The notes under the pieces are model-generated. The model saw nothing but the letters and a program-made list of their open reading frames with translations, was not told the origin of the DNA and did no database searches. A stretch of DNA of 64,000 nucleotides, from the NCBI RefSeq assembly GCF_003018255.1, contig NZ_CP027440.1. One strand, given 5' to 3'. Source of the stretch: Escherichia coli (GTDB lineage Bacteria; Pseudomonadota; Gammaproteobacteria; Enterobacterales; Enterobacteriaceae). This document shows positions 6,045-20,356 of this stretch, piece after piece. Position 1 is the stretch's first letter; the number at the start of each line of letters is the position of its first letter. The position numbers and the translations under genes are program-made.

Positions 6045-8321
6045 ATGCTCAATCAAGAACTGGAACTCAGTTTAAATATGGCTTTCGCCAGAGCGCGCGA
6101 GCACCGTCATGAGTTTATGACCGTCGAGCACTTGTTACTGGCGCTGCTCAGTAACCCATCTGCCCGGGAGGCGCTGGAAGCGTGCTCTGTGGATTTGGTT
6201 GCGCTCCGTCAGGAACTGGAAGCCTTTATTGAACAAACCACACCCGTTCTGCCTGCCAGTGAAGAGGAGCGCGACACACAGCCGACGCTGAGTTTTCAGC
6301 GTGTACTGCAACGTGCGGTCTTCCATGTCCAGTCCTCCGGTCGCAATGAGGTTACCGGTGCAAACGTTCTGGTCGCTATCTTTAGCGAACAGGAGTCGCA
6401 GGCGGCATATCTGTTGCGCAAACATGAAGTCAGCCGTCTCGATGTGGTGAACTTTATCTCTCATGGCACGCGTAAAGACGAGCCGACACAGTCTTCTGAT
6501 CCTGGCAGCCAGCCAAACAGCGAAGAACAAGCTGGTGGGGAGGAACGTATGGAGAATTTCACGACGAACCTGAATCAGCTTGCGCGAGTGGGCGGAATCG
6601 ACCCACTGATTGGTCGTGAGAAGGAGCTGGAGCGTGCTATTCAGGTTCTCTGCCGTCGCCGTAAAAACAACCCGCTGCTGGTGGGGGAATCTGGTGTCGG
6701 TAAAACCGCGATTGCGGAGGGGCTTGCATGGCGAATTGTTCAGGGCGATGTGCCGGAAGTGATGGCTGACTGTACGATTTACTCTCTCGATATCGGTTCT
6801 CTGTTAGCGGGCACAAAATATCGCGGCGACTTTGAAAAACGTTTTAAAGCGTTGCTCAAGCAGCTGGAGCAAGACACTAACAGCATCCTGTTTATTGATG
6901 AGATCCACACCATTATCGGTGCGGGTGCAGCGTCTGGTGGCCAGGTCGATGCAGCTAACCTGATCAAACCGTTGCTCTCCAGCGGTAAAATTCGCGTAAT
7001 TGGTTCGACAACCTATCAGGAGTTCAGCAACATTTTCGAGAAAGACCGTGCTCTGGCGCGTCGCTTCCAGAAAATTGATATTACTGAACCGTCAATCGAA
7101 GAAACTGTTCAAATCATCAATGGCCTGAAACCGAAGTATGAAGCGCACCACGACGTGCGTTATACCGCAAAAGCGGTGCGTGCAGCGGTAGAGCTGGCGG
7201 TGAAATACATTAACGATCGTCATCTGCCGGATAAAGCCATTGACGTTATCGACGAAGCGGGCGCTCGCGCACGCCTGATGCCGGTAAGCAAACGCAAGAA
7301 AACCGTTAATGTGGCGGATATTGAGTCCGTGGTGGCCCGTATTGCGCGCATTCCAGAGAAGAGTGTTTCGCAGAGTGACCGCGATACCCTGAAAAACCTC
7401 GGCGATCGCCTGAAAATGCTGGTCTTCGGTCAGGATAAAGCCATTGAGGCGCTGACTGAAGCCATTAAGATGGCGCGTGCAGGTTTAGGTCACGAACATA
7501 AACCGGTCGGTTCGTTCCTGTTTGCCGGTCCTACCGGGGTCGGGAAAACAGAGGTGACGGTACAGCTTTCGAAAGCGTTGGGCATTGAGCTTCTGCGCTT
7601 TGATATGTCCGAGTATATGGAACGCCATACCGTCAGCCGTCTGATTGGTGCGCCTCCGGGATACGTTGGTTTTGATCAGGGCGGTTTGCTGACTGATGCG
7701 GTCATCAAGCATCCACATGCGGTGCTGCTGCTGGACGAAATCGAGAAAGCGCACCCGGACGTGTTCAATATTCTGTTGCAGGTGATGGACAACGGTACGC
7801 TGACCGATAACAACGGACGCAAAGCGGACTTCCGTAACGTGGTATTGGTGATGACCACCAACGCTGGGGTACGAGAAACTGAGCGTAAATCGATTGGTCT
7901 TATCCACCAGGACAACAGTACCGATGCGATGGAAGAGATCAAGAAGATCTTTACGCCGGAGTTTCGTAACCGTCTCGACAACATTATCTGGTTCGATCAT
8001 CTCTCCACCGACGTGATCCATCAGGTAGTGGATAAATTCATCGTCGAGTTGCAGGTTCAGCTGGATCAGAAAGGTGTTTCTCTGGAAGTGAGCCAGGAAG
8101 CGCGTAACTGGCTGGCCGAGAAAGGTTACGACCGGGCAATGGGCGCACGTCCGATGGCGCGTGTCATCCAGGACAACCTGAAAAAACCGCTCGCCAACGA
8201 ACTGTTGTTTGGTTCGCTGGTGGACGGCGGTCAGGTGACGGTTGCGCTGGATAAAGAGAAAAATGAGCTGACTTATGGATTCCAGAGTGCACAAAAGCAC
8301 AAGGCGGAAGCAGCGCATTAA
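6045..8321 (+). CDS. clpA: ATP-dependent Clp protease ATP-binding subunit ClpA
   Basis: 758 aa from [10 protein letters not shown]; two AAA+ modules with Walker A GESGVGKT and GPTGVGKT. Confidence 0.95.
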
Positions 8322-8344
8322 TCTAATTGTTAGGTAGGTTGGTG

Positions 8345-8380
8345 AAGTCCGTAATCTCGAAAGAGGTTACGGACTTTTTG
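8345..8380 (+). terminator. Rho-independent terminator downstream of clpA
   Basis: Perfect 10-bp stem aagtccgtaa/ttacggactt followed by T tract. Confidence 0.7.
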
Positions 8381-8557
8381 TTTATGGGGTGGAGGAGGTT
8401 CTGACCCTTTTTTTGATGATGATGGTAATTTGTTGATAATTAGTGCTGCGGGAAGGTAAGGATAAAAAAGGGTGGTAGCAGGAAAATGAGATGGTTTTGC
8501 TTTATTAACAACGGGCTAGACGTGTAGTATTTGAGTTCACTGCCGTACAGGCAGATA

Positions 8558-8964
8558 AAATGCGAAAAAAAGCTCGTACTTTCGTACGAGCTCTTCTTTG
8601 AATATGGCGGTGAGGGGGGGATTGACTCGCTTCGCTCGCCCTGCGGGCAGCCCACTCACTGTGTTCGTGGTCTGTCCAACTGGCTGCGCCAGTTGTCGAA
8701 CCCCGGTCGGGGCTTCTCATCCCCCCTGGAGTGCAATATGCGAAAAAAAAGCTCGCACTTTCGTACGAGCTCTTCTTTGAATATGGCGGTGAGGGGGGGG
8801 ATTGACTCGCTTCGCTCGCCCTGCGGGCAGCCCACTCACTGTGTTCGTGGTCTGTCCAACTGGCTGCGCCAGTTGTCGAACCCCGGTCGGGGCTTCTCAT
8901 CCCCCCTGGAGTGCAATATGCGAAAAAAAAAGCTCGCACTTTCGTACGAGCTCTTCTTTGAATA
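8558..8964 (-). repeat. Tandem ~180-bp direct repeat (two full units plus a leading partial unit) downstream of serW; each unit = terminator hairpin + ~115-bp spacer + 19-20 nt copy of the tRNA-Ser 3' end
   Basis: Unit starts at 8605, 8784 and (true tRNA) 8965, periods 179 and 181; near-identical units differing by homopolymer length and one stem base. Confidence 0.85.
8923..8951 (-). terminator. Rho-independent terminator immediately 3' of serW (first of three repeated copies)
   Basis: Minus strand: gctcgtac-gaaa-gtgcgagc hairpin followed by 9 U; copies also at about 8565-8593 and 8744-8772. Confidence 0.8.
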
Positions 8965-9052
8965 TGGCGGTGAGGGGGGGATTCGAACCCCCGATACGTT
9001 GCCGTATACACACTTTCCAGGCGTGCTCCTTCAGCCACTCGGACACCTCACC
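8965..9052 (-). tRNA. serW: tRNA-Ser (GGA anticodon), 88 nt with long variable arm and encoded CCA
   Basis: Reverse complement reads GGTGAGGTGTCCGAGTGGCTGAAGGAGCACGCCTGGAAAGTGTGTATACGGCAACGTATCGGGGGTTCGAATCCCCCCCTCACCGCCA. Confidence 0.9.
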
Positions 9053-9235
9053 AAATTGTTTTGCTACCAAACCTCATGGGTGGCAACGGGGCGCTACTAT
9101 AGGGAGTTGGAGTAAAACGGTCAAGAAGAATTTTAATGATAATTATTGTTTGCTCATACTGTAAACAAGTTGTGCAGTATATCTACATCGAGACAAGTTA
9201 TGGACTTATACTTCCAAAGTACTTCATACATATCA

Positions 9236-9268
9236 CAAAATAAAAAGGCCGGCTAAACCGACCTTTTA
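9236..9268 (-). terminator. Rho-independent terminator downstream of infA
   Basis: Minus strand hairpin GGUCGG-UUUA-GCCGGCC (one GU wobble) followed by U tract. Confidence 0.6.
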
Positions 9269-9305
9269 CTCGTTCTTTCTCTTCGCCCATCAGGCGGTAA
9301 AACAA

Positions 9306-9527
<222 letters not shown>

Positions 9528-9808
9528 ATCCTCTGGGGTATCACTACCGTAATTTGAACCGGCAAGATAATGCCGAAGTTCTGTAAATAAGTAAAGATTT
9601 GCGCGCTAAATCGCAACAAACAGGTTCGGCACATTACTCCGAAAACACACGGCTAAGCCGCACCAAAAGCGCAACGTATAAGGGAGCGGTGAGATAAACG
9701 ATGGGCGTTACCTGACGCGAAAAATTCCTTATCGGCAGCGGGGTAATGAGCGTAACCAACTCTGCGACCGCAATTATAACACTCTGGGGAGAAATGTGCC
9801 GAAAACAT

Positions 9809-10513
9809 TCATTCTTGTGGTGAAAACAAGCACCGTGGTACCCAGAAATTATTCGGCAATCGTCCGAGGCGCATTTGATTGAGATAATTGAGGTAATCCC
9901 GGCGGGGAATTTCGCAGGCACCAAGCGACGCTGTGTGATCGTTAAGGACCTGGCAGTCGATAAGTTTACCGCCATGACCAATAAATTCCTCACAGAATAC
10001 CAGAAGCGCCGTTTTAGACGCATTTTCCATCCGGCTGAACATGGACTCGCCACAAAATAGCGTTCCCTGGGCCACGCCGTACATACCGCCGACAAGCTCA
10101 TCTTCACGCCAGACTTCAATAGAGTGGGCATGACCGAGTTCGTGAAGGCGATGGTAGGCTTCGACCACGCCACGCGTGATCCAGGTTCCTTCTTCGCGAT
10201 CGCTGGCACAGCCTTCAATGACCTGACCAAAAGCGTAATTCATCGTGACTCGATAGGGCGAGCGTTTATGAAATCGCTTCATACTACGGCTGATATGCAG
10301 TGATTCAGGCCAAAGCACCGCGCGGGGATCGGGCGACCACCAGAGGATGGGGTCACCTGGAGAAAACCACGGAAAAATACCACGCTGGTAAGCCATTAAC
10401 AGGCGCGCAGGGCTAAGATCGCCTCCCAGTGCCAGCAGGCCGTTAGGCTCACGTAATGCGCCTTCCGGGGAAGGGAAGGCTATTGAATGGCGAGAAAGCT
10501 GAACCAGGCGCAT
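9809..10513 (-). CDS. aat: Leucyl/phenylalanyl-tRNA--protein transferase
   Basis: 234 aa; synteny between infA and cydC. Confidence 0.9.
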
Positions 10514-10554
10514 GACCGCAAAACTCCACGCAAGTCGGATCGTTCAATAATAGC

Positions 10555-12276
10555 TTACAAACCCTGCTTAAACTGGTAATAACGCCCCTGTCTGGCAAGC
10601 AGTTCTGCGTGAGTACCTTGCTCAATAATTTGCCCGTTGTCCATCACTATTATTTGTTGGAAACGAGAGAGTCCGCGAAGTCGATGGGTGACCATTAACA
10701 CCGTTTTCTCATGCATCATTTCTGCAAGCAATTCAAGGATCTGACTTTCGGTTGTGGCATCTAAGCCTTCTGTAGGTTCATCCAGCAATACCAGCGGCGC
10801 ATTATGTAACAGCGCACGGGCGATAGCCAGACGGCGTAGTTCACCACCGGAGAGCTGGCGTCCGCCTTCACCCAACCAACTGTTGAGACCTGCATCCTCG
10901 AGCAGCTTCTCCAGACCAACGCGACGTAAGATCTCCGCCAGAGCCTCATCACTACTGCCAGGCGAGGCGAGTAACAGATTATCACGCAGCGTGGCGCTAA
11001 ACAGATGCACTCGCTGAGGAACAACGCTGATGGTCTGTCGTAGAGTCGCTTCATTCAGGCTGGCTATGGGGCTACCGTTAAGCAAAATCTCGCCCTGTTG
11101 CGGGTCCCATGCGCGGGTCAGCAGTTGTAACAGTGTTGATTTGCCGCATCCGGTTCGCCCGAGAATCGCTATATGTTCCCCGGCGTTTACCTGAAGAGAA
11201 ATCCCTTTAAGTGCCTGTTGGGATTGCTCCGGATAATTGAATTGAACATCCCGTAACGTCAGCGAAACGCGATCGGCAACACGAGTTTGGGTATCAGGGA
11301 AGGTGACTTCCGGTTTTTGATCCGTTAAGTCAGTGATCCGTACGGCAGAGGCAATGACTTGCCCCAGATGCTGAAATGCACCCGTTACTGGTGCCAGTGC
11401 TTCAAACGCGGCTAACGCGCAGAAGACAAACAGGGCAATTAACGCGCCGGGTTGAGCATTGCCGCCAACGCCGCCAGACGCCATCCACAGCATCAGGATC
11501 ACCGCTAACGCGCCAATGAGCAGCATTATCGCTTGCGACAATGCGGTGAGTTCAGATTGACGACGTTGCGCTTCCAGCCACTGAATTTCTGTATTCTCTA
11601 ATTGCGTGCGATAACGATCGCTGGCACCAAAGATGGTCAGCTCAGCTTGCCCTTGCAGCCAGGCCGTCAGTTGTTGGCGATACTGCCCGCGAAGATGAGT
11701 CAGATTTTGCCCGGTGCTTTTTCCCGCACGATAAAACAGTGGTGGCATAAGGAAAAGCGTCAGTAACATAATGCCGCCCAGCGTAAAGGCGAGGGTGAAA
11801 TCAAGGAAACTTAACCCGATTGTCACCACCATAATCACCACAAAAGCGCCCACCAGCGGCGAGATAACGCGCAGGTAAAGATGATCGAGCGTATCAACAT
11901 CCGCCACCACGCGGTTGAGCAATTCGCCCTGACGATAGCGCGCCAGTCCGGCAGGGGAGAGGGGCAGCAATTTGCTGAAGGTATAAATGCGCAGATGCTG
12001 CAACACGCGGAAAGTCGCGTCGTGACTTACCAGACGTTCAAAATAGCGCCCGGCAGTACGGGTGATTGCTGCACCACGCACGCCCGCAGCGGGTAGCATA
12101 TAGTTGAAGCTGTACAGTCCGGCAACCCCCGCTACCGCTGAGGCCGAGAGGAACCAGCCGGAAAGTGTCAACAGACCGATACTGGCGAGCAGCGTGACAA
12201 TTGCCAGCACAATACCAAGACTTAACATCCATTTATGACGTTTATACAGTGCCAGATAGGGTAGCAAAGCGCGCAT
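10555..12276 (-). CDS. cydC: Cysteine/glutathione ABC exporter subunit CydC
   Basis: 573 aa; N-terminal TM domain + C-terminal ABC ATPase (GRTGCGKST, LSGGELRR). Confidence 0.9.
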   Translation of the reverse strand: MRALLPYLALYKRHKWMLSLGIVLAIVTLLASIGLLTLSGWFLSASAVAGVAGLYSFNYMLPAAGVRGAAITRTAGRYFERLVSHDATFRVLQHLRIYTFSKLLPLSPAGLARYRQGELLNRVVADVDTLDHLYLRVISPLVGAFVVIMVVTIGLSFLDFTLAFTLGGIMLLTLFLMPPLFYRAGKSTGQNLTHLRGQYRQQLTAWLQGQAELTIFGASDRYRTQLENTEIQWLEAQRRQSELTALSQAIMLLIGALAVILMLWMASGGVGGNAQPGALIALFVFCALAAFEALAPVTGAFQHLGQVIASAVRITDLTDQKPEVTFPDTQTRVADRVSLTLRDVQFNYPEQSQQALKGISLQVNAGEHIAILGRTGCGKSTLLQLLTRAWDPQQGEILLNGSPIASLNEATLRQTISVVPQRVHLFSATLRDNLLLASPGSSDEALAEILRRVGLEKLLEDAGLNSWLGEGGRQLSGGELRRLAIARALLHNAPLVLLDEPTEGLDATTESQILELLAEMMHEKTVLMVTHRLRGLSRFQQIIVMDNGQIIEQGTHAELLARQGRYYQFKQGL

Positions 12277-14043
12277 TTAAATCTCCTCCTGACGATGGGC
12301 CAGTAATGTGGCGAATGGGCCGCCAGCCACACTTAATTCCGCGTAACGTCCTTGCTCAATAATCTGACCATCCTGCATTACCCAAATGACATCCCAGTCA
12401 GCAAGATCTTCTAACTGGTGGGTGACCATTAACGTTGTCTGGCGCAGAGAGGCGGCATTCAGCGCCTCCATTACGCGCTGTTCACTGTGAGCATCAAGGC
12501 TGGCAGCGGGTTCATCCAACAGTAATAGCGAACAGGGATTTAGTAACGCACGGGCCACCGCCACGCGCTGCGCCTGCCCCACGGAAAGGCGGGCAGCCTG
12601 GTCGCCAACAGGCGTATCAACGCCTTGTGGCAGGAGCGGTAGAAACTCACTGACCCAGGCGTTATCCAGCGCTGTTTGTAACTCGTGTTCGCTGGCATCA
12701 GGTCGTGCCAGTAGTACGTTATCCCGTAGTGTTGCTGCCGGTAATTGTGGGTTTTGCCCAACCCAGGAGAGATGCTTACGCCATGATTCCGGTGATAAAT
12801 CGCGTAATTCTATCCCGTTGATTCGTAGCGATCCCTGATATGAGAGAAAACCAGAAAGCGCGTTCAGCAGTGAGCTTTTACCTGAACCGCTGCGACCAAC
12901 CAACACTGCACGTTGGCCTGCTGGCAAAGTAAAGTTCAGCGGTCCAGCCAGCGTTTTACCTTCTGGTGATGTAATAAACAGATCCTCGGCTTCAATGGTC
13001 ACCGGATCGGTTGATGCTAATTCCGCCTCACCACGTTGCGGATGGGCTAGCGGGGTTTCCATAAACGTTTTCAGACTGTCAGCTGCGCCAACAGCCTGGG
13101 CTTTAGCATGATAAAACGTACCGAGATCGCGTAATGGCTGGAAAAACTCCGGCGCAAGGATCAGGGCCAGAAAACCCGCAGCCAGCGTCACGCCAGTATC
13201 ATAGTGACCAAAATCCAGCTCGCCGAGATAGGAAAAACCAAAGTAGACCGCCACCAGAGCAATTGACAGCGAGGTAAAAAATTCGAGAATGCCGGAGGAT
13301 AAAAACGCCAGCCGTAGCACTTCCATTGTCCGTTGGCGGAAATCTTCCGAAGCAGAACGAATACTTTCAATTTCAGCTTCACCACGACCAAAAATACGCA
13401 ATGTTTCCATGCCGCGCAGGCGATCGAGGAAATGCCCACTTAAGCGAGCAAGAGCGAGAAAGTTACGTCGGTTAGCATCGGCAGCCCCCATTCCAACCAG
13501 CGCCATAAACAACGGAATTAACGGTGCAGTGCCCAGCAGAATAAGCGCCGCAGCCCAGTTAGACGGGAAGATCGCCACCACAATCAGCAAAGGCACGGAC
13601 ACTGCCAGCGCCATTTGCGGCAGGTAGCGTGCATAGTAATCATGCATATCGTCAATTTGCTCGAGTACCAGCGTCGCCCAGCTCCCCGCCGGTTTACCCT
13701 GAATCCACGCTGGCCCTGCTTGTTGCAGACGGTCGAGAACCTGACGGCGGATGGCAAAGCGGATATGCTGCCCGGCGTGATAACCCACCCGTTCGCGTAA
13801 CCAGACCACCCATGCGCGCAGTACAAAGGTCAGAACCAGTAACGTAAAGGGAAGCAGCAGGGCTTCACGGGGAATATTCTCCATAATCATATGTTGCAGA
13901 ATTCGCGCCATGAACCAGGCCTGGGCAATGATCAATATGCCGCTCACAAAGCCCAGCAGACGAGAAATATTCAGCCAACGTTGGGAGATGACGCTTTGCT
14001 GTTTTAACCAGCGGGTTAACTCTTTTTGACGGGATTTATTCAT
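12277..14043 (-). CDS. cydD: Cysteine/glutathione ABC exporter subunit CydD
   Basis: 588 aa; ABC motifs [17 protein letters not shown]; directly abuts cydC. Confidence 0.9.
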   Translation of the reverse strand: MNKSRQKELTRWLKQQSVISQRWLNISRLLGFVSGILIIAQAWFMARILQHMIMENIPREALLLPFTLLVLTFVLRAWVVWLRERVGYHAGQHIRFAIRRQVLDRLQQAGPAWIQGKPAGSWATLVLEQIDDMHDYYARYLPQMALAVSVPLLIVVAIFPSNWAAALILLGTAPLIPLFMALVGMGAADANRRNFLALARLSGHFLDRLRGMETLRIFGRGEAEIESIRSASEDFRQRTMEVLRLAFLSSGILEFFTSLSIALVAVYFGFSYLGELDFGHYDTGVTLAAGFLALILAPEFFQPLRDLGTFYHAKAQAVGAADSLKTFMETPLAHPQRGEAELASTDPVTIEAEDLFITSPEGKTLAGPLNFTLPAGQRAVLVGRSGSGKSSLLNALSGFLSYQGSLRINGIELRDLSPESWRKHLSWVGQNPQLPAATLRDNVLLARPDASEHELQTALDNAWVSEFLPLLPQGVDTPVGDQAARLSVGQAQRVAVARALLNPCSLLLLDEPAASLDAHSEQRVMEALNAASLRQTTLMVTHQLEDLADWDVIWVMQDGQIIEQGRYAELSVAGGPFATLLAHRQEEI

Positions 14044-14100
14044 TGCACGCTTAGCAGGTGAGTTATCAGAATTATTTGCAGAGCAATGTTACAACGAGGA

Positions 14101-14137
14101 AAAAATAAAGGCGACCCATAGTCGCATGGTGTCGCCT
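14101..14137 (-). terminator. Rho-independent terminator downstream of trxB
   Basis: GC-rich inverted repeat ggcgac...gtcgcc followed by U tract on minus strand. Confidence 0.6.
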
Positions 14138-14165
14138 TCTTTACTTTTGTTACTGATTTGTAAAA

Positions 14166-15248
<1,083 letters not shown>

Positions 15249-15674
15249 TCAAATTCTCCCGTCATTATCACCTCTGCTACTTAAATTTCCCGCTTTATAA
15301 GCCGATTAAATGATGAATAAACGCCCCTGTTAATGAATATCTGGCATGTTGTACTAAAAATCGATGTTTTGCTTTGACAATCCCCTGGTGTTTTGCGAAA
15401 ACATTCGAGGAAGAAAAAAACAGTATTCTTATATGCGCATAACCATGCATGTAAATACCATGTTTACCGTGCTAGTGAAATCTACGTATGGCGTGGACAG
15501 ACGCCATTCGTGATGTCGATAGCTGCCACAAGGCAACGGTCTTCTCACCGTAGACCCAGGCATTGCGCGCCGTGAATCTTCATGATTTCGGTCTATCGTG
15601 ACGGGTAGCGACTCTGAACAGTGATGTTTCAGGGTCAGACAGGAGTAGGGAAGGAATACAGAGAGACAATAATA

Positions 15675-16169
15675 ATGGTAGATAGCAAGAAGCGCCCTGG
15701 CAAAGATCTCGACCGTATCGATCGTAACATTCTTAATGAGTTGCAAAAGGATGGGCGTATTTCTAACGTCGAGCTTTCTAAACGTGTGGGACTTTCCCCA
15801 ACGCCGTGCCTTGAGCGTGTGCGTCGGCTGGAAAGACAAGGGTTTATTCAGGGCTATACGGCGCTGCTGAACCCCCATTATCTGGATGCATCACTTCTGG
15901 TATTCGTTGAGATTACTCTGAATCGTGGCGCACCGGATGTGTTTGAACAATTCAATACCGCTGTACAAAAACTTGAAGAAATTCAGGAGTGTCATTTAGT
16001 ATCCGGTGATTTCGACTACCTGTTGAAAACACGCGTGCCGGATATGTCAGCTTACCGTAAGTTGCTGGGGGAAACCCTGCTGCGTCTGCCTGGCGTCAAT
16101 GACACACGGACATACGTTGTTATGGAAGAAGTCAAGCAGAGTAATCGTCTGGTTATTAAGACGCGCTAA
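15675..16169 (+). CDS. lrp: Leucine-responsive regulatory protein Lrp
   Basis: 164 aa from MVDSKKRPGKDLDRIDRNILNELQKDGRISN; long untranslated leader upstream. Confidence 0.95.
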   Translation: MVDSKKRPGKDLDRIDRNILNELQKDGRISNVELSKRVGLSPTPCLERVRRLERQGFIQGYTALLNPHYLDASLLVFVEITLNRGAPDVFEQFNTAVQKLEEIQECHLVSGDFDYLLKTRVPDMSAYRKLLGETLLRLPGVNDTRTYVVMEEVKQSNRLVIKTR

Positions 16170-16303
16170 CACGGAACAGGTGCAAAATCGGCGTATTTTG
16201 ATTACACTCCTGTTAATCCATACAGCAACAGTACTGGGGTAACCTGGTACTGTTGTCCGTTTTAGCATCGGGCAGGAAAAGCCTGTAACCTGGAGAGCCT
16301 TTC

Positions 16304-19300
16304 TTGAGCCAGGAATACACTGAAGACAAAGAAGTCACATTGACAAAGTTAAGTAGCGGCCGCCGCCTTCTGGAGGCGTTGCTGATCCTTATTGTCCTGT
16401 TTGCCGTCTGGTTGATGGCTGCCTTACTAAGCTTTAACCCTTCGGACCCCAGCTGGTCGCAAACGGCCTGGCATGAACCTATCCATAATTTAGGTGGGAT
16501 GCCCGGTGCGTGGTTGGCGGATACGCTGTTCTTTATTTTTGGCGTGATGGCTTACACCATTCCCGTCATTATTGTCGGCGGTTGTTGGTTTGCCTGGCGT
16601 CATCAGTCCAGCGACGAATACATTGATTATTTTGCCGTTTCGCTACGCATCATTGGCGTTTTGGCGCTCATCCTTACCTCCTGTGGTCTGGCGGCAATCA
16701 ACGCTGACGATATCTGGTATTTTGCCTCCGGTGGCGTCATTGGCAGCTTACTAAGCACTACGCTACAACCACTGCTACACAGTAGCGGGGGAACTATTGC
16801 GCTGCTCTGCGTTTGGGCAGCGGGCCTGACGCTGTTCACCGGTTGGTCATGGGTGACCATTGCTGAAAAACTCGGCGGCTGGATTTTAAACATTCTCACC
16901 TTCGCCAGTAATCGTACCCGTCGCGATGATACGTGGGTCGATGAAGATGAGTATGAAGACGACGAAGAGTATGAAGATGAAAATCACGGCAAACAGCATG
17001 AATCACGCCGTGCCCGTATTCTTCGCGGCGCGCTAGCGCGTCGTAAACGGTTGGCGGAAAAATTCATTAATCCGATGGGGCGGCAAACAGACGCTGCGTT
17101 GTTCTCCGGTAAGCGGATGGATGATGACGAAGAGATTACCTACACTGCACGCGGTGTGGCTGCCGACCCTGACGACGTCCTCTTTTCGGGCAATCGTGCA
17201 ACGCAGCCAGAATATGACGAGTACGATCCATTATTAAACGGTGCGCCAATTACCGAACCTGTTGCTGTAGCAGCTGCTGCTACCACGGCGACGCAAAGCT
17301 GGGCTGCACCGGTTGAACCTGTGACTCAGACGCCACCTGTTGCCTCTGTTGATGTTCCACCTGCGCAACCTACAGTAGCCTGGCAGCCTGTACCGGGGCC
17401 GCAAACGGGAGAACCGGTTATTGCTCCTGCACCGGAAGGTTACCCACAGCAGCCACAATATGCGCAGCCTGCAGTGCAATATAATGAGCCGCTGCAACAA
17501 CCAGTACAGCCACAGCAGCCGTATTATGCACCTGCAGCTGAACAACCTGCGCAACAACCTTACTACGCTCCTGCGGCGGAACAACCTGTTCAGCAACCGT
17601 ATTACTCCCCTGCGCCAGAACAACCGGTGGCAGGTAACGCCTGGCAAGCCGAAGAGCTGCAATCCACTTTTGCTCCACAGTCTACATACCAGACTGAGCA
17701 AACTTATCAGCAGCCAGCCGCTCAGGAACCGTTGTACCAACAGCCGCAACCTGTTGAACAGCAGCCTGTTGTGGAGCCTGAACCCGTTGTAGAAGAGACA
17801 AAACCCGCGCGTCCGCCGCTTTACTACTTTGAAGAAGTGGAAGAGAAGCGAGCCCGTGAACGTGAACAACTTGCGGCCTGGTATCAACCGATTCCAGAAC
17901 CGGTTAAAGAACCAGAACCGATCAAATCTTCGCTAAAAGCACCTTCTGTTGCAGCAGTACCTCCAGTGGAAGCCGCTGCCGCCGTTTCTCCGCTGGCATC
18001 TGGCGTGAAAAAAGCGACACTGGCGACGGGGGCTGCCGCAACCGTTGCCGCGCCAGTCTTCAGTCTGGCAAATAGCGCTGGACCGCGTCCGCAGGTCAAA
18101 GAGGGGATTGGCCCCCAGTTGCCACGACCGAAACGCATCCGCGTGCCAACTCGTCGTGAACTGGCGTCTTACGGTATTAAGCTGCCCTCACAGCGTGCGG
18201 CAGAAGAAAAAGCCCGTGAAGCCCAGCGCAATCAGTATGATTCTGGCGATCAGTATAACGATGATGAAATTGATGCGATGCAGCAGGATGAACTGGCGCG
18301 TCAATTCGCCCAGACACAGCAGCAACGCTACGGCGAACAGTATCAACATGATGTGCCCGTGAACGCAGAAGATGCAGATGCTGCGGCAGAGGCTGAACTG
18401 GCTCGTCAGTTTGCTCAAACTCAACAACAACGTTATTCCGGCGAACAACCGGCTGGGGCGAATCCGTTCTCGCTGGATGATTTTGAATTTTCGCCAATGA
18501 AAGCGTTGCTGGATGATGGTCCACACGAACCGCTGTTTACGCCAATTGTTGAACCTGTACAGCAGCCGCAACAACCGATTGCACCGCAGCAACAGTATCA
18601 GCAGCCGCAGCAACCAGTTGCGCCGCAGCAGCAATATCAGCAGCCGCAACAGCCGGTTGCGCCGCAGCCGCAGTATCAGCAGCCACAACAGCCGGTTGCA
18701 CAGCAGCCGCAACAACCGGTTGCACCGCAGCAGCAATATCAGCAGCCACAACAGCCGGTTACACAGCAGCCGCAGTATCAGCAGCCGCAACAGCCAGTTG
18801 CGCCACAGCCGCAGGATACCCTGCTTCATCCGCTGTTGATGCGTAATGGCGACAGCCGTCCGTTGCATAAACCGACGACGCCACTGCCTTCTCTGGATTT
18901 GCTGACACCGCCGCCGAGCGAAGTGGAGCCGGTAGATACCTTTGCGCTTGAACAAATGGCGCGCCTGGTAGAAGCGCGTCTGGCTGATTTCCGTATTAAA
19001 GCCGATGTTGTCAATTACTCTCCGGGGCCAGTTATCACTCGCTTTGAACTTAACCTGGCACCGGGCGTAAAAGCGGCGCGCATTTCTAACTTGTCACGGG
19101 ACCTTGCCCGTTCACTTTCGACGGTGGCGGTGCGTGTCGTTGAAGTTATTCCTGGCAAACCCTATGTAGGTCTGGAGTTACCGAATAAAAAACGACAAAC
19201 CGTTTATCTGCGCGAAGTTTTGGATAACGCCAAATTCCGCGATAATCCGTCGCCATTAACCGTGGTGCTGGGTAAAGATATCGCCGGTGAGCCGGTGGTT

Positions 19301-20356
19301 GCCGATCTGGCGAAAATGCCGCACTTGTTGGTTGCGGGGACTACCGGTTCCGGTAAGTCTGTCGGTGTGAACGCGATGATCCTGAGCATGCTTTATAAAG
19401 CACAGCCAGAAGATGTGCGTTTCATCATGATCGACCCGAAAATGCTGGAGCTTTCGGTTTATGAAGGCATTCCGCATCTGTTAACGGAAGTCGTTACTGA
19501 TATGAAAGATGCCGCCAACGCGCTGCGCTGGTGTGTTAACGAGATGGAGCGTCGTTATAAACTGATGTCTGCGCTGGGTGTGCGTAATCTGGCGGGTTAT
19601 AACGAAAAAATTGCTGAAGCCGATCGCATGATGCGTCCGATTCCAGACCCGTACTGGAAGCCGGGTGATAGTATGGATGCGCAGCATCCGGTGCTGAAAA
19701 AAGAACCGTACATAGTGGTGTTGGTGGACGAATTTGCCGACCTGATGATGACGGTAGGTAAAAAAGTGGAAGAGCTGATAGCACGTCTGGCGCAAAAAGC
19801 CCGTGCCGCGGGTATCCACCTCGTACTGGCAACGCAGCGTCCATCGGTTGATGTTATTACTGGTCTGATTAAAGCGAATATTCCGACCCGTATCGCCTTT
19901 ACCGTATCCAGTAAGATTGACTCACGTACCATTCTTGATCAGGCTGGCGCGGAATCACTGCTGGGTATGGGGGATATGCTCTACTCTGGGCCGAACTCCA
20001 CGTTGCCGGTACGTGTCCATGGTGCTTTTGTTCGCGATCAGGAAGTTCATGCCGTGGTGCAGGACTGGAAAGCGCGTGGTCGCCCACAGTATGTTGATGG
20101 CATCACCTCCGACAGCGAAAGCGAAGGTGGTGCGGGTGGTTTCGATGGCGCTGAAGAACTGGATCCGTTGTTCGATCAGGCGGTGCAGTTTGTCACTGAA
20201 AAACGCAAAGCGTCAATTTCAGGCGTACAGCGTCAGTTCCGCATTGGTTATAACCGTGCAGCGCGTATTATCGAACAGATGGAAGCGCAAGGGATTGTCA
20301 GCGAACAGGGGCACAACGGTAATCGTGAAGTGCTGGCCCCACCGCCGTTTGACTAA
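16304..20356 (+). CDS. ftsK: DNA translocase FtsK (TTG start); 1350 aa with expanded Pro/Gln-rich linker
   Basis: N-terminal TM domain, PQ-rich repeats, C-terminal motor with Walker A GTTGSGKS and gamma domain; RBS ggagag upstream of TTG. Confidence 0.9.

Follow-up and report, generated by a model that had tools for sequence, protein, structure and literature searches.

Extra length of FtsK in an Escherichia coli sequence lies in two in-frame minisatellites of the linker, one of which is the typing locus CVN001

The ftsK gene in the 64,000-nucleotide stretch of Escherichia coli DNA analysed here (the window) encodes a longer protein than that of strain K-12, which raises the question of where in the protein the additional residues are located, how they came about and whether they matter. 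The coding sequence (plus strand, 16304..20356) begins with a TTG start codon, comprises 1350 codons and a stop, and was delimited from the open reading frame list, from its Pfam domains and from its collinearity with K-12 b0890; an exact-sequence protein look-up matched its product to WP_106905422.1. The N-terminal four-transmembrane domain (PF13491 FtsK_4TM, amino acids 20-191, E = 5e-42) is accompanied in the C-terminal part by PF17854 FtsK_alpha (861-961), PF01580 FtsK_SpoIIIE (969-1182) and PF09397 FtsK_gamma (1285-1345), all four with scores far over their cut-offs. Based on Pfam and on the protein alignment with K-12, the alpha, beta and gamma motor domains occupy amino acids 861-1345 (18884..20338, plus strand). 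The linker FtsK-L, taken as the interval between the Pfam borders of the 4TM and alpha domains, covers 669 amino acids (192-860; 16877..18883, plus strand) and has a Pro plus Gln content of 30.2%, versus 8.8% in the remaining FtsK. The gene order lrp-ftsK-lolA, taken from the open reading frame list and from annotation, is the same in the window, in K-12 and in 15 other genomes. Judged by its sequence, the protein is an FtsK/SpoIIIE DNA translocase of the enterobacterial long-linker type, all four features on which this assignment is based having been found. According to reviews, the FtsK linker is about 650 amino acids long and Pro/Gln-rich (PMC5357621), is unstructured, differs across species and is needed for normal FtsK activity (PMC5357621, PMC3870252); its partners are FtsZ, FtsQ, FtsL and FtsI, and large linker deletions result in filamentation (PMC5357621).

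The gene was compared with ftsK of K-12 MG1655 (b0890, NP_415410.1, NC_000913.3 933224-937213) by global protein and DNA alignments. The two lengths set side by side in the first-pass annotation, 1350 amino acids here and 1329 in K-12, are correct, with both open reading frames starting at TTG, and so is its statement that the lrp-ftsK spacer is the same as in K-12, the distance from the lrp stop to the ftsK start being 134 bp in both. It had also argued that the 63 additional base pairs lie inside the gene, and the alignments indeed put all of them within the repeat arrays of the linker; they do not, however, form one indel, but are divided into blocks of 39 bp and 24 bp located some 1.1 kb apart. 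The first block (17555..17593, plus strand, 13 amino acids), identified in both the DNA and the protein alignments, has an arbitrary register within its repeat. The second (18677..18700, plus strand), seen in the alignment with K-12, encodes the partial unit QQPQQPVA and has its junction at a CAGCAGCCGCA direct repeat. Both are absent from K-12, which has two units in the upstream array (array 1) against three in the window, and six full units in the downstream array (array 2) against six plus a 24-bp unit in the window. The linkers of the two strains differ in length accordingly, and no indel was found outside the repeat arrays. The gene itself, its start codon, the upstream spacer, the domain order, a 14-amino acid duplication (ELARQ; see below) and the motor sequence are shared, amino acids 861-1350 being identical to K-12 at the protein level, as expected from the earlier proposal of an in-frame change that leaves the motor untouched. 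Over the gene, 79 nucleotide substitutions separate the two alleles, and about 12 amino acid substitutions, all N-terminal to the motor. At residue 6 (codon at 16319-16321, in MSQEYTEDK), the window has Thr and K-12 has Ile.

The reiterated motifs noticed when the linker was first read, 39-bp (13-amino acid) units, a YYAPAAEQP-type array and the 14-amino acid duplication, were all recovered with Tandem Repeats Finder (TRF) and in the alignments. Array 1 (17519..17623, plus strand, amino acids 406-440) is comprised of three copies, the last one partial, of a 13-amino acid YYAPAAEQP-type unit according to TRF and to unit decomposition; TRF reports it at 17519-17625 with a period of 39, 2.7 copies and a score of 116. 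Array 2 (18560..18814, plus strand, amino acids 753-837) has a total length of 255 bp and is comprised of six 39-bp units and one 24-bp partial unit, as determined by TRF and DNA decomposition; TRF reports it at 18559-18814 with a period of 39, compound periods of 63, 102 and 141, and scores of 165-414. These linker repeats are far beyond chance, since the best TRF score among codon-shuffled versions of the linker (n=100) had a mean of 14.7 and never exceeded 57. The 14-amino acid ELARQ duplication (plus strand, 18290-18331 and 18395-18436, amino acids 663-676 and 698-711) is the same in the K-12 protein; its two DNA copies diverge at many synonymous sites in the DNA alignment, and it reads as an old, diverged duplication without length variation. 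A 9-bp repeat, GAGTATGAA, is present in 3.2 copies at 16949-16977 and encodes an acidic stretch of 11 amino acids early in the linker. Near these coordinates strain MS21-1 shows an indel of one amino acid, by which its segment N-terminal to array 1 has 406 instead of 405 amino acids; this neighbourhood is a third, minor source of FtsK length change.

Array 2 is CVN001, a generic E. coli MLVA locus (GECM-7/-10) described by Lindstedt et al. 2007, as relayed in PMC5217547, PMC8143711 and PMC11773471, and placed in ftsK by the last of these. The primers and the formula for the number of repeats, (PS-250)/39 with PS the product size, were taken from PMC8143711. By in-silico PCR the forward primer AACCGGCTGGGGCGAATCC matches the window at 18447..18465 on the plus strand and the reverse primer GGCGGCGGTGTCAGCAAATC at 18896..18915 on the minus strand, both with 0 mismatches; the longer forward primer of PMC11773471 matches 18445-18465. 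CVN001 and array 2 thus share exact primer sites, the 39-bp unit, the location in ftsK and a copy number that varies among strains. The predicted product is 469 bp in the window, or (469-250)/39 = 5.62 repeats, and 445 bp in K-12, or 5.00 repeats; over 16 alleles the in-silico products span 328-562 bp and 2-8 repeats, while clinical isolates were reported with 4-8 repeats, five and six being the most common (PMC5217547). Non-integer values were obtained for the window and strain DETEC-S792 (5.62) and for 25DN and OkiPb01710 (5.38). The scheme assumes integer copies, so that the 5.62 of the window, which is due to the 24-bp unit, would be called as 6 after rounding. Here the CVN001 scheme reaches its limits, and the locus is not to be excluded on this ground. 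CVN001 does not cover array 1, the source of 39 of the 63 extra bases.

The variation in linker length was surveyed with a 1501-bp linker segment as query against 5,426 complete RefSeq genomes of E. coli, of which 5,425 matched. Drawing from the ranked matches at regular intervals gave 56 that spanned the full segment, which constitutes a systematic sample and not a census. FtsK lengths were derived from the match spans, and ten predictions that were checked against RefSeq annotation all agreed. Ten length classes were found in the sample, ranging from 1303 to 1394 amino acids, with all differences being multiples of 3 bp. The most populated were the K-12 class of 1329 amino acids (16 of the 56 genomes, about 29%), followed by 1368 (14 genomes), 1355 (10), 1342 (9) and 1347 (2), with single genomes at 1303, 1350, 1360, 1381 and 1394; a step other than 39 bp was observed in four of the 56 genomes (about 7%). 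When 16 alleles were decomposed, the 405 amino acids before array 1 (406 in MS21-1), the 302 between the arrays and the 513 at the C-terminal end were constant in length. Array 1 had two, three or four units, and array 2 had from three to nine, in some cases with a 5-amino acid sub-unit gained or lost. Essentially all natural length variation of E. coli FtsK is therefore that of these two minisatellites; the 1329 amino acids of K-12 are one common class among many natural lengths, and the 1350-amino acid FtsK is an ordinary, already-known in-frame VNTR polymorphism among strains. The shortest FtsK seen, with 1303 amino acids, belongs to JA0265 (NZ_CP072785.1), which is annotated as a 'spontaneous mutant'; its array 2 has three units and its CVN001 value is 2, below the 4-8 range of PMC5217547. 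As a side observation, the window FtsK forms a singleton in protein clusters at 90% identity, although its identity to FtsK of other E. coli strains exceeds 97%. Repeat indels presumably interfere with the clustering; cluster-based counts of FtsK 'families' hence need caution.

The particular allele of the window is rare. It was absent from the 5,426 complete E. coli genomes, none of which reached 99% identity over the 1501-bp linker segment; the closest match had 98.7% over this segment and 95.8% over the array alone. Its absence there would be compatible with an assembly or sequencing artefact, and short-read assembly can go wrong in 39-bp repeats that are 85-95% identical; both the extra unit and the 24-bp partial unit would then be spurious products of a mis-assembled repeat. 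We regard this as extremely unlikely, because the window agrees at every base with a 5053-bp locus of assembly GCA_011958185.1 and because DETEC-S792, an independent complete genome, shares both array lengths and the position of the partial unit; moreover, three contigs on record encode the exact protein (the window itself may come from one of these assemblies), and the 255-bp array fits within read length. The allele is real.

The 24-bp block, unit 4 of array 2, has the sequence CAGCAGCCACAACAGCCGGTTGCA according to the DNA decomposition and is directly followed on its 3' side by a normal unit. It corresponds to a 39-bp unit minus 15 bp, and strain 104 has 15 bp more at this place. The motif CAGCAGCCGCA is found at the unit start and 15 bp earlier in units ending in ...QQPQY, and if 15 bp were deleted between the two occurrences, exactly the 24-bp junction seen would result. 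DETEC-S792 has also lost 15 bp, with array lengths, position of the partial unit and junction length all as in the window, and the opposite step, a gain of 15 bp (an extra QQPQY), occurs in 25DN, EcN_Sk and OkiPb01710; a nested 15-bp step thus appears to act beside the 39-bp step in array 2. A derivation of the window's array 2 from that of strain 104 or DETEC-S792 via one deletion was considered and rejected on the order of the units, which is AQQPQ-junction-APQQQY in the window and APQQQY followed by AQQPQY in strain 104. In the comparison of unit strings, none of the sampled alleles gave the window's array 2 by any single event.

Judged by the flanking sequence, the nearest relatives of the window are 99.4-99.9% identical to it over 9 kb on each side, and have seven full units in array 2 and an FtsK of 1355 amino acids; strain 104 is one of them, as are numerous isolates from birds and pigs. 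The window, DETEC-S792 and strain 104 are identical over 16900-17657, 17659-18450 and 18815-19700, the window differing from both others at position 17658. Of the 23 substitutions that separate the window from DETEC-S792, its closest relative, 19 are concentrated in a divergent patch at 18451..18702 (plus strand). Within array 2, the KE55 and MS21-1 alleles match the window exactly in unit 1, which has Ile, and in the leading 30 nucleotides of unit 2, and strain 104 and DETEC-S792 match it exactly in units 6 and 7. The window ftsK allele is therefore a mosaic, with the appearance of a backbone into which a short tract, terminating within array 2, was imported or converted. Since the 5' half of the array differs from relatives that are otherwise identical, recombination or gene conversion would have acted besides slippage. 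The suggestion of the first-pass annotation that the repeats are prone to slippage agrees with the length polymorphism within E. coli, and falls short as a complete account, slippage alone failing to explain a mosaic array 2.

Taking these observations together, we consider it highly probable that the extra length represents an ordinary, near-neutral allele of two in-frame VNTRs in a disordered tether, which change by 39-bp and 15-bp steps and are reshuffled by recombination. The Pro/Gln-rich tether, in which both VNTRs are located, links the DNA-translocase motor of FtsK to the domain that serves in the membrane and the divisome. Steps of 39 bp (13 amino acids) would arise when near-identical units mispair by strand slippage or recombine unequally, and steps of 15 bp (5 amino acids) would involve short direct repeats, CAGCAGCC(G/A)CA, located at the unit start and near the unit end. 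Relative to K-12, array 1 has one more unit (3 against 2) and array 2 one additional unit truncated by 15 bp (6 + 0.6 against 6), and the 5' half of array 2 would have been reshuffled by homologous recombination, either between lineages or between units. The positions, the unit structure, the polymorphism, the identity with CVN001 and the mosaic pattern were observed directly; the mutational mechanisms, the precursor of the 24-bp unit and near-neutrality are inferred, and slippage and unequal recombination would leave indistinguishable outcomes in the sequence. A more specific version, to which we assign a low probability, has an inter-lineage recombination tract of about 250 bp with its 3' end inside CVN001, whose out-of-register resolution produced the 24-bp unit; recombination would then take the place of slippage as a main source of new linker lengths, and there might be weak selection on the length of the linker. 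The simpler account, in which one replication-slippage event added the 63 bp as whole units to a K-12-like allele, agrees with the changes being in-frame and situated in tandem repeats. It is very unlikely nonetheless, as the two indels are 1.1 kb apart in unrelated repeat families and 24 bp is not a multiple of the 39-bp unit. The 79 substitutions between K-12 and the window show that the two are not an ancestor-descendant pair, and what separates the window from its closest relatives is a step of 15 bp together with clustered substitutions, and not whole units. As a single event, whole-unit slippage is refuted, and it remains only as a component of the mechanism.

In the two-VNTR reading, the reading frame and the downstream motor are kept, the size of each step being divisible by three. 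A minimal functional effect of the length change, or none, is most likely, given that natural strains accommodate linker lengths differing by at least 91 amino acids. Some functional dependence on length may exist, given the divisome contacts of the linker and the filamentation caused by its large deletions. Selection on linker length, acting on how far the motor extends from the septum or on the strength of divisome contacts and making the 1350-amino acid allele a functional variant, could be read from the uneven population of the FtsK length classes. These classes, however, track lineage, strains with 99.9%-identical flanks all having 1355 amino acids; the natural 91-amino acid span is without known phenotype, and no link to host or source was apparent among the listed matches. 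In Salmonella Enteritidis, where a natural 84-bp ftsK indel corresponds to the loss of two of nine repeats, exchange of this linker indel between two strains had no detectable phenotype in one assay (PMC6137255), which also speaks against such tuning. Adaptive tuning of FtsK length is thus unsupported, and in our opinion highly improbable. Still more remote, to the point of being negligible, is a contingency (phase-variable) locus, in which the repeats would toggle ftsK or alter an overlapping antisense gene. Stop-free antisense reading frames do overlap both arrays on the minus strand (17234..17887 and 18188..18955), but the observed length steps of 39, 15 and 3 bp are all multiples of three, and no frameshifted allele was present among the 56 sampled or the 16 examined. 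A phase-variable locus was rejected on these grounds, every step preserving the frame and the examined alleles all being intact open reading frames. The antisense frames themselves, of 217 (17234-17887) and 255 (18188-18955) amino acids and rich in Leu and Arg, are probably the CAG/CCG-rich coding repeat read backwards, and not genes.

Similar repeats are known from related settings. The ftsK VNTR of Salmonella enterica, STTR7/SENTR2, has a 39-bp unit and 9.3 copies in S. Enteritidis NCTC 13349 (PMC2430564); like the E. coli array it keeps the reading frame, lies in the Pro/Gln-rich linker of FtsK and is used for typing, and it differs in genus and in copy number. CVN004, a 15-bp VNTR in tolA, is listed beside CVN001 in the same panel (PMC11773471, PMC5217547) and resembles the ftsK arrays in being in-frame, length-polymorphic and located in the extended tether of an envelope or division protein, with a different gene and a different unit length. 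For typing, the nested 15-bp step means that CVN001 fragment sizing can yield non-integer alleles, and the second 39-bp array, about 1 kb upstream of CVN001, adds to FtsK length independently. For the protein, the FtsK tether tolerates length changes of tens of residues, and length differences in FtsK are not to be treated by annotators as errors; the allele as such is of little importance for biology.

The window contains another repeat, outside ftsK. Between clpA and a tRNA-Ser gene (8968-9052, minus strand), a 180-bp tandem repeat extends over 8560-8983 in 2.4 copies with 97% matches, one unit of which matches the Rfam RtT RNA (8605-8741, 45.1 bits, barely over the gathering score). The copy number of the repeat is not constant among the closest relatives: compared over 8000-17400, the DETEC-S792 sequence falls 180 bp short of the window and that of 20Ec-P-124 exceeds it by 61 bp. 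The repeat is probably another known VNTR, and may correspond to a 179-bp MLVA locus.
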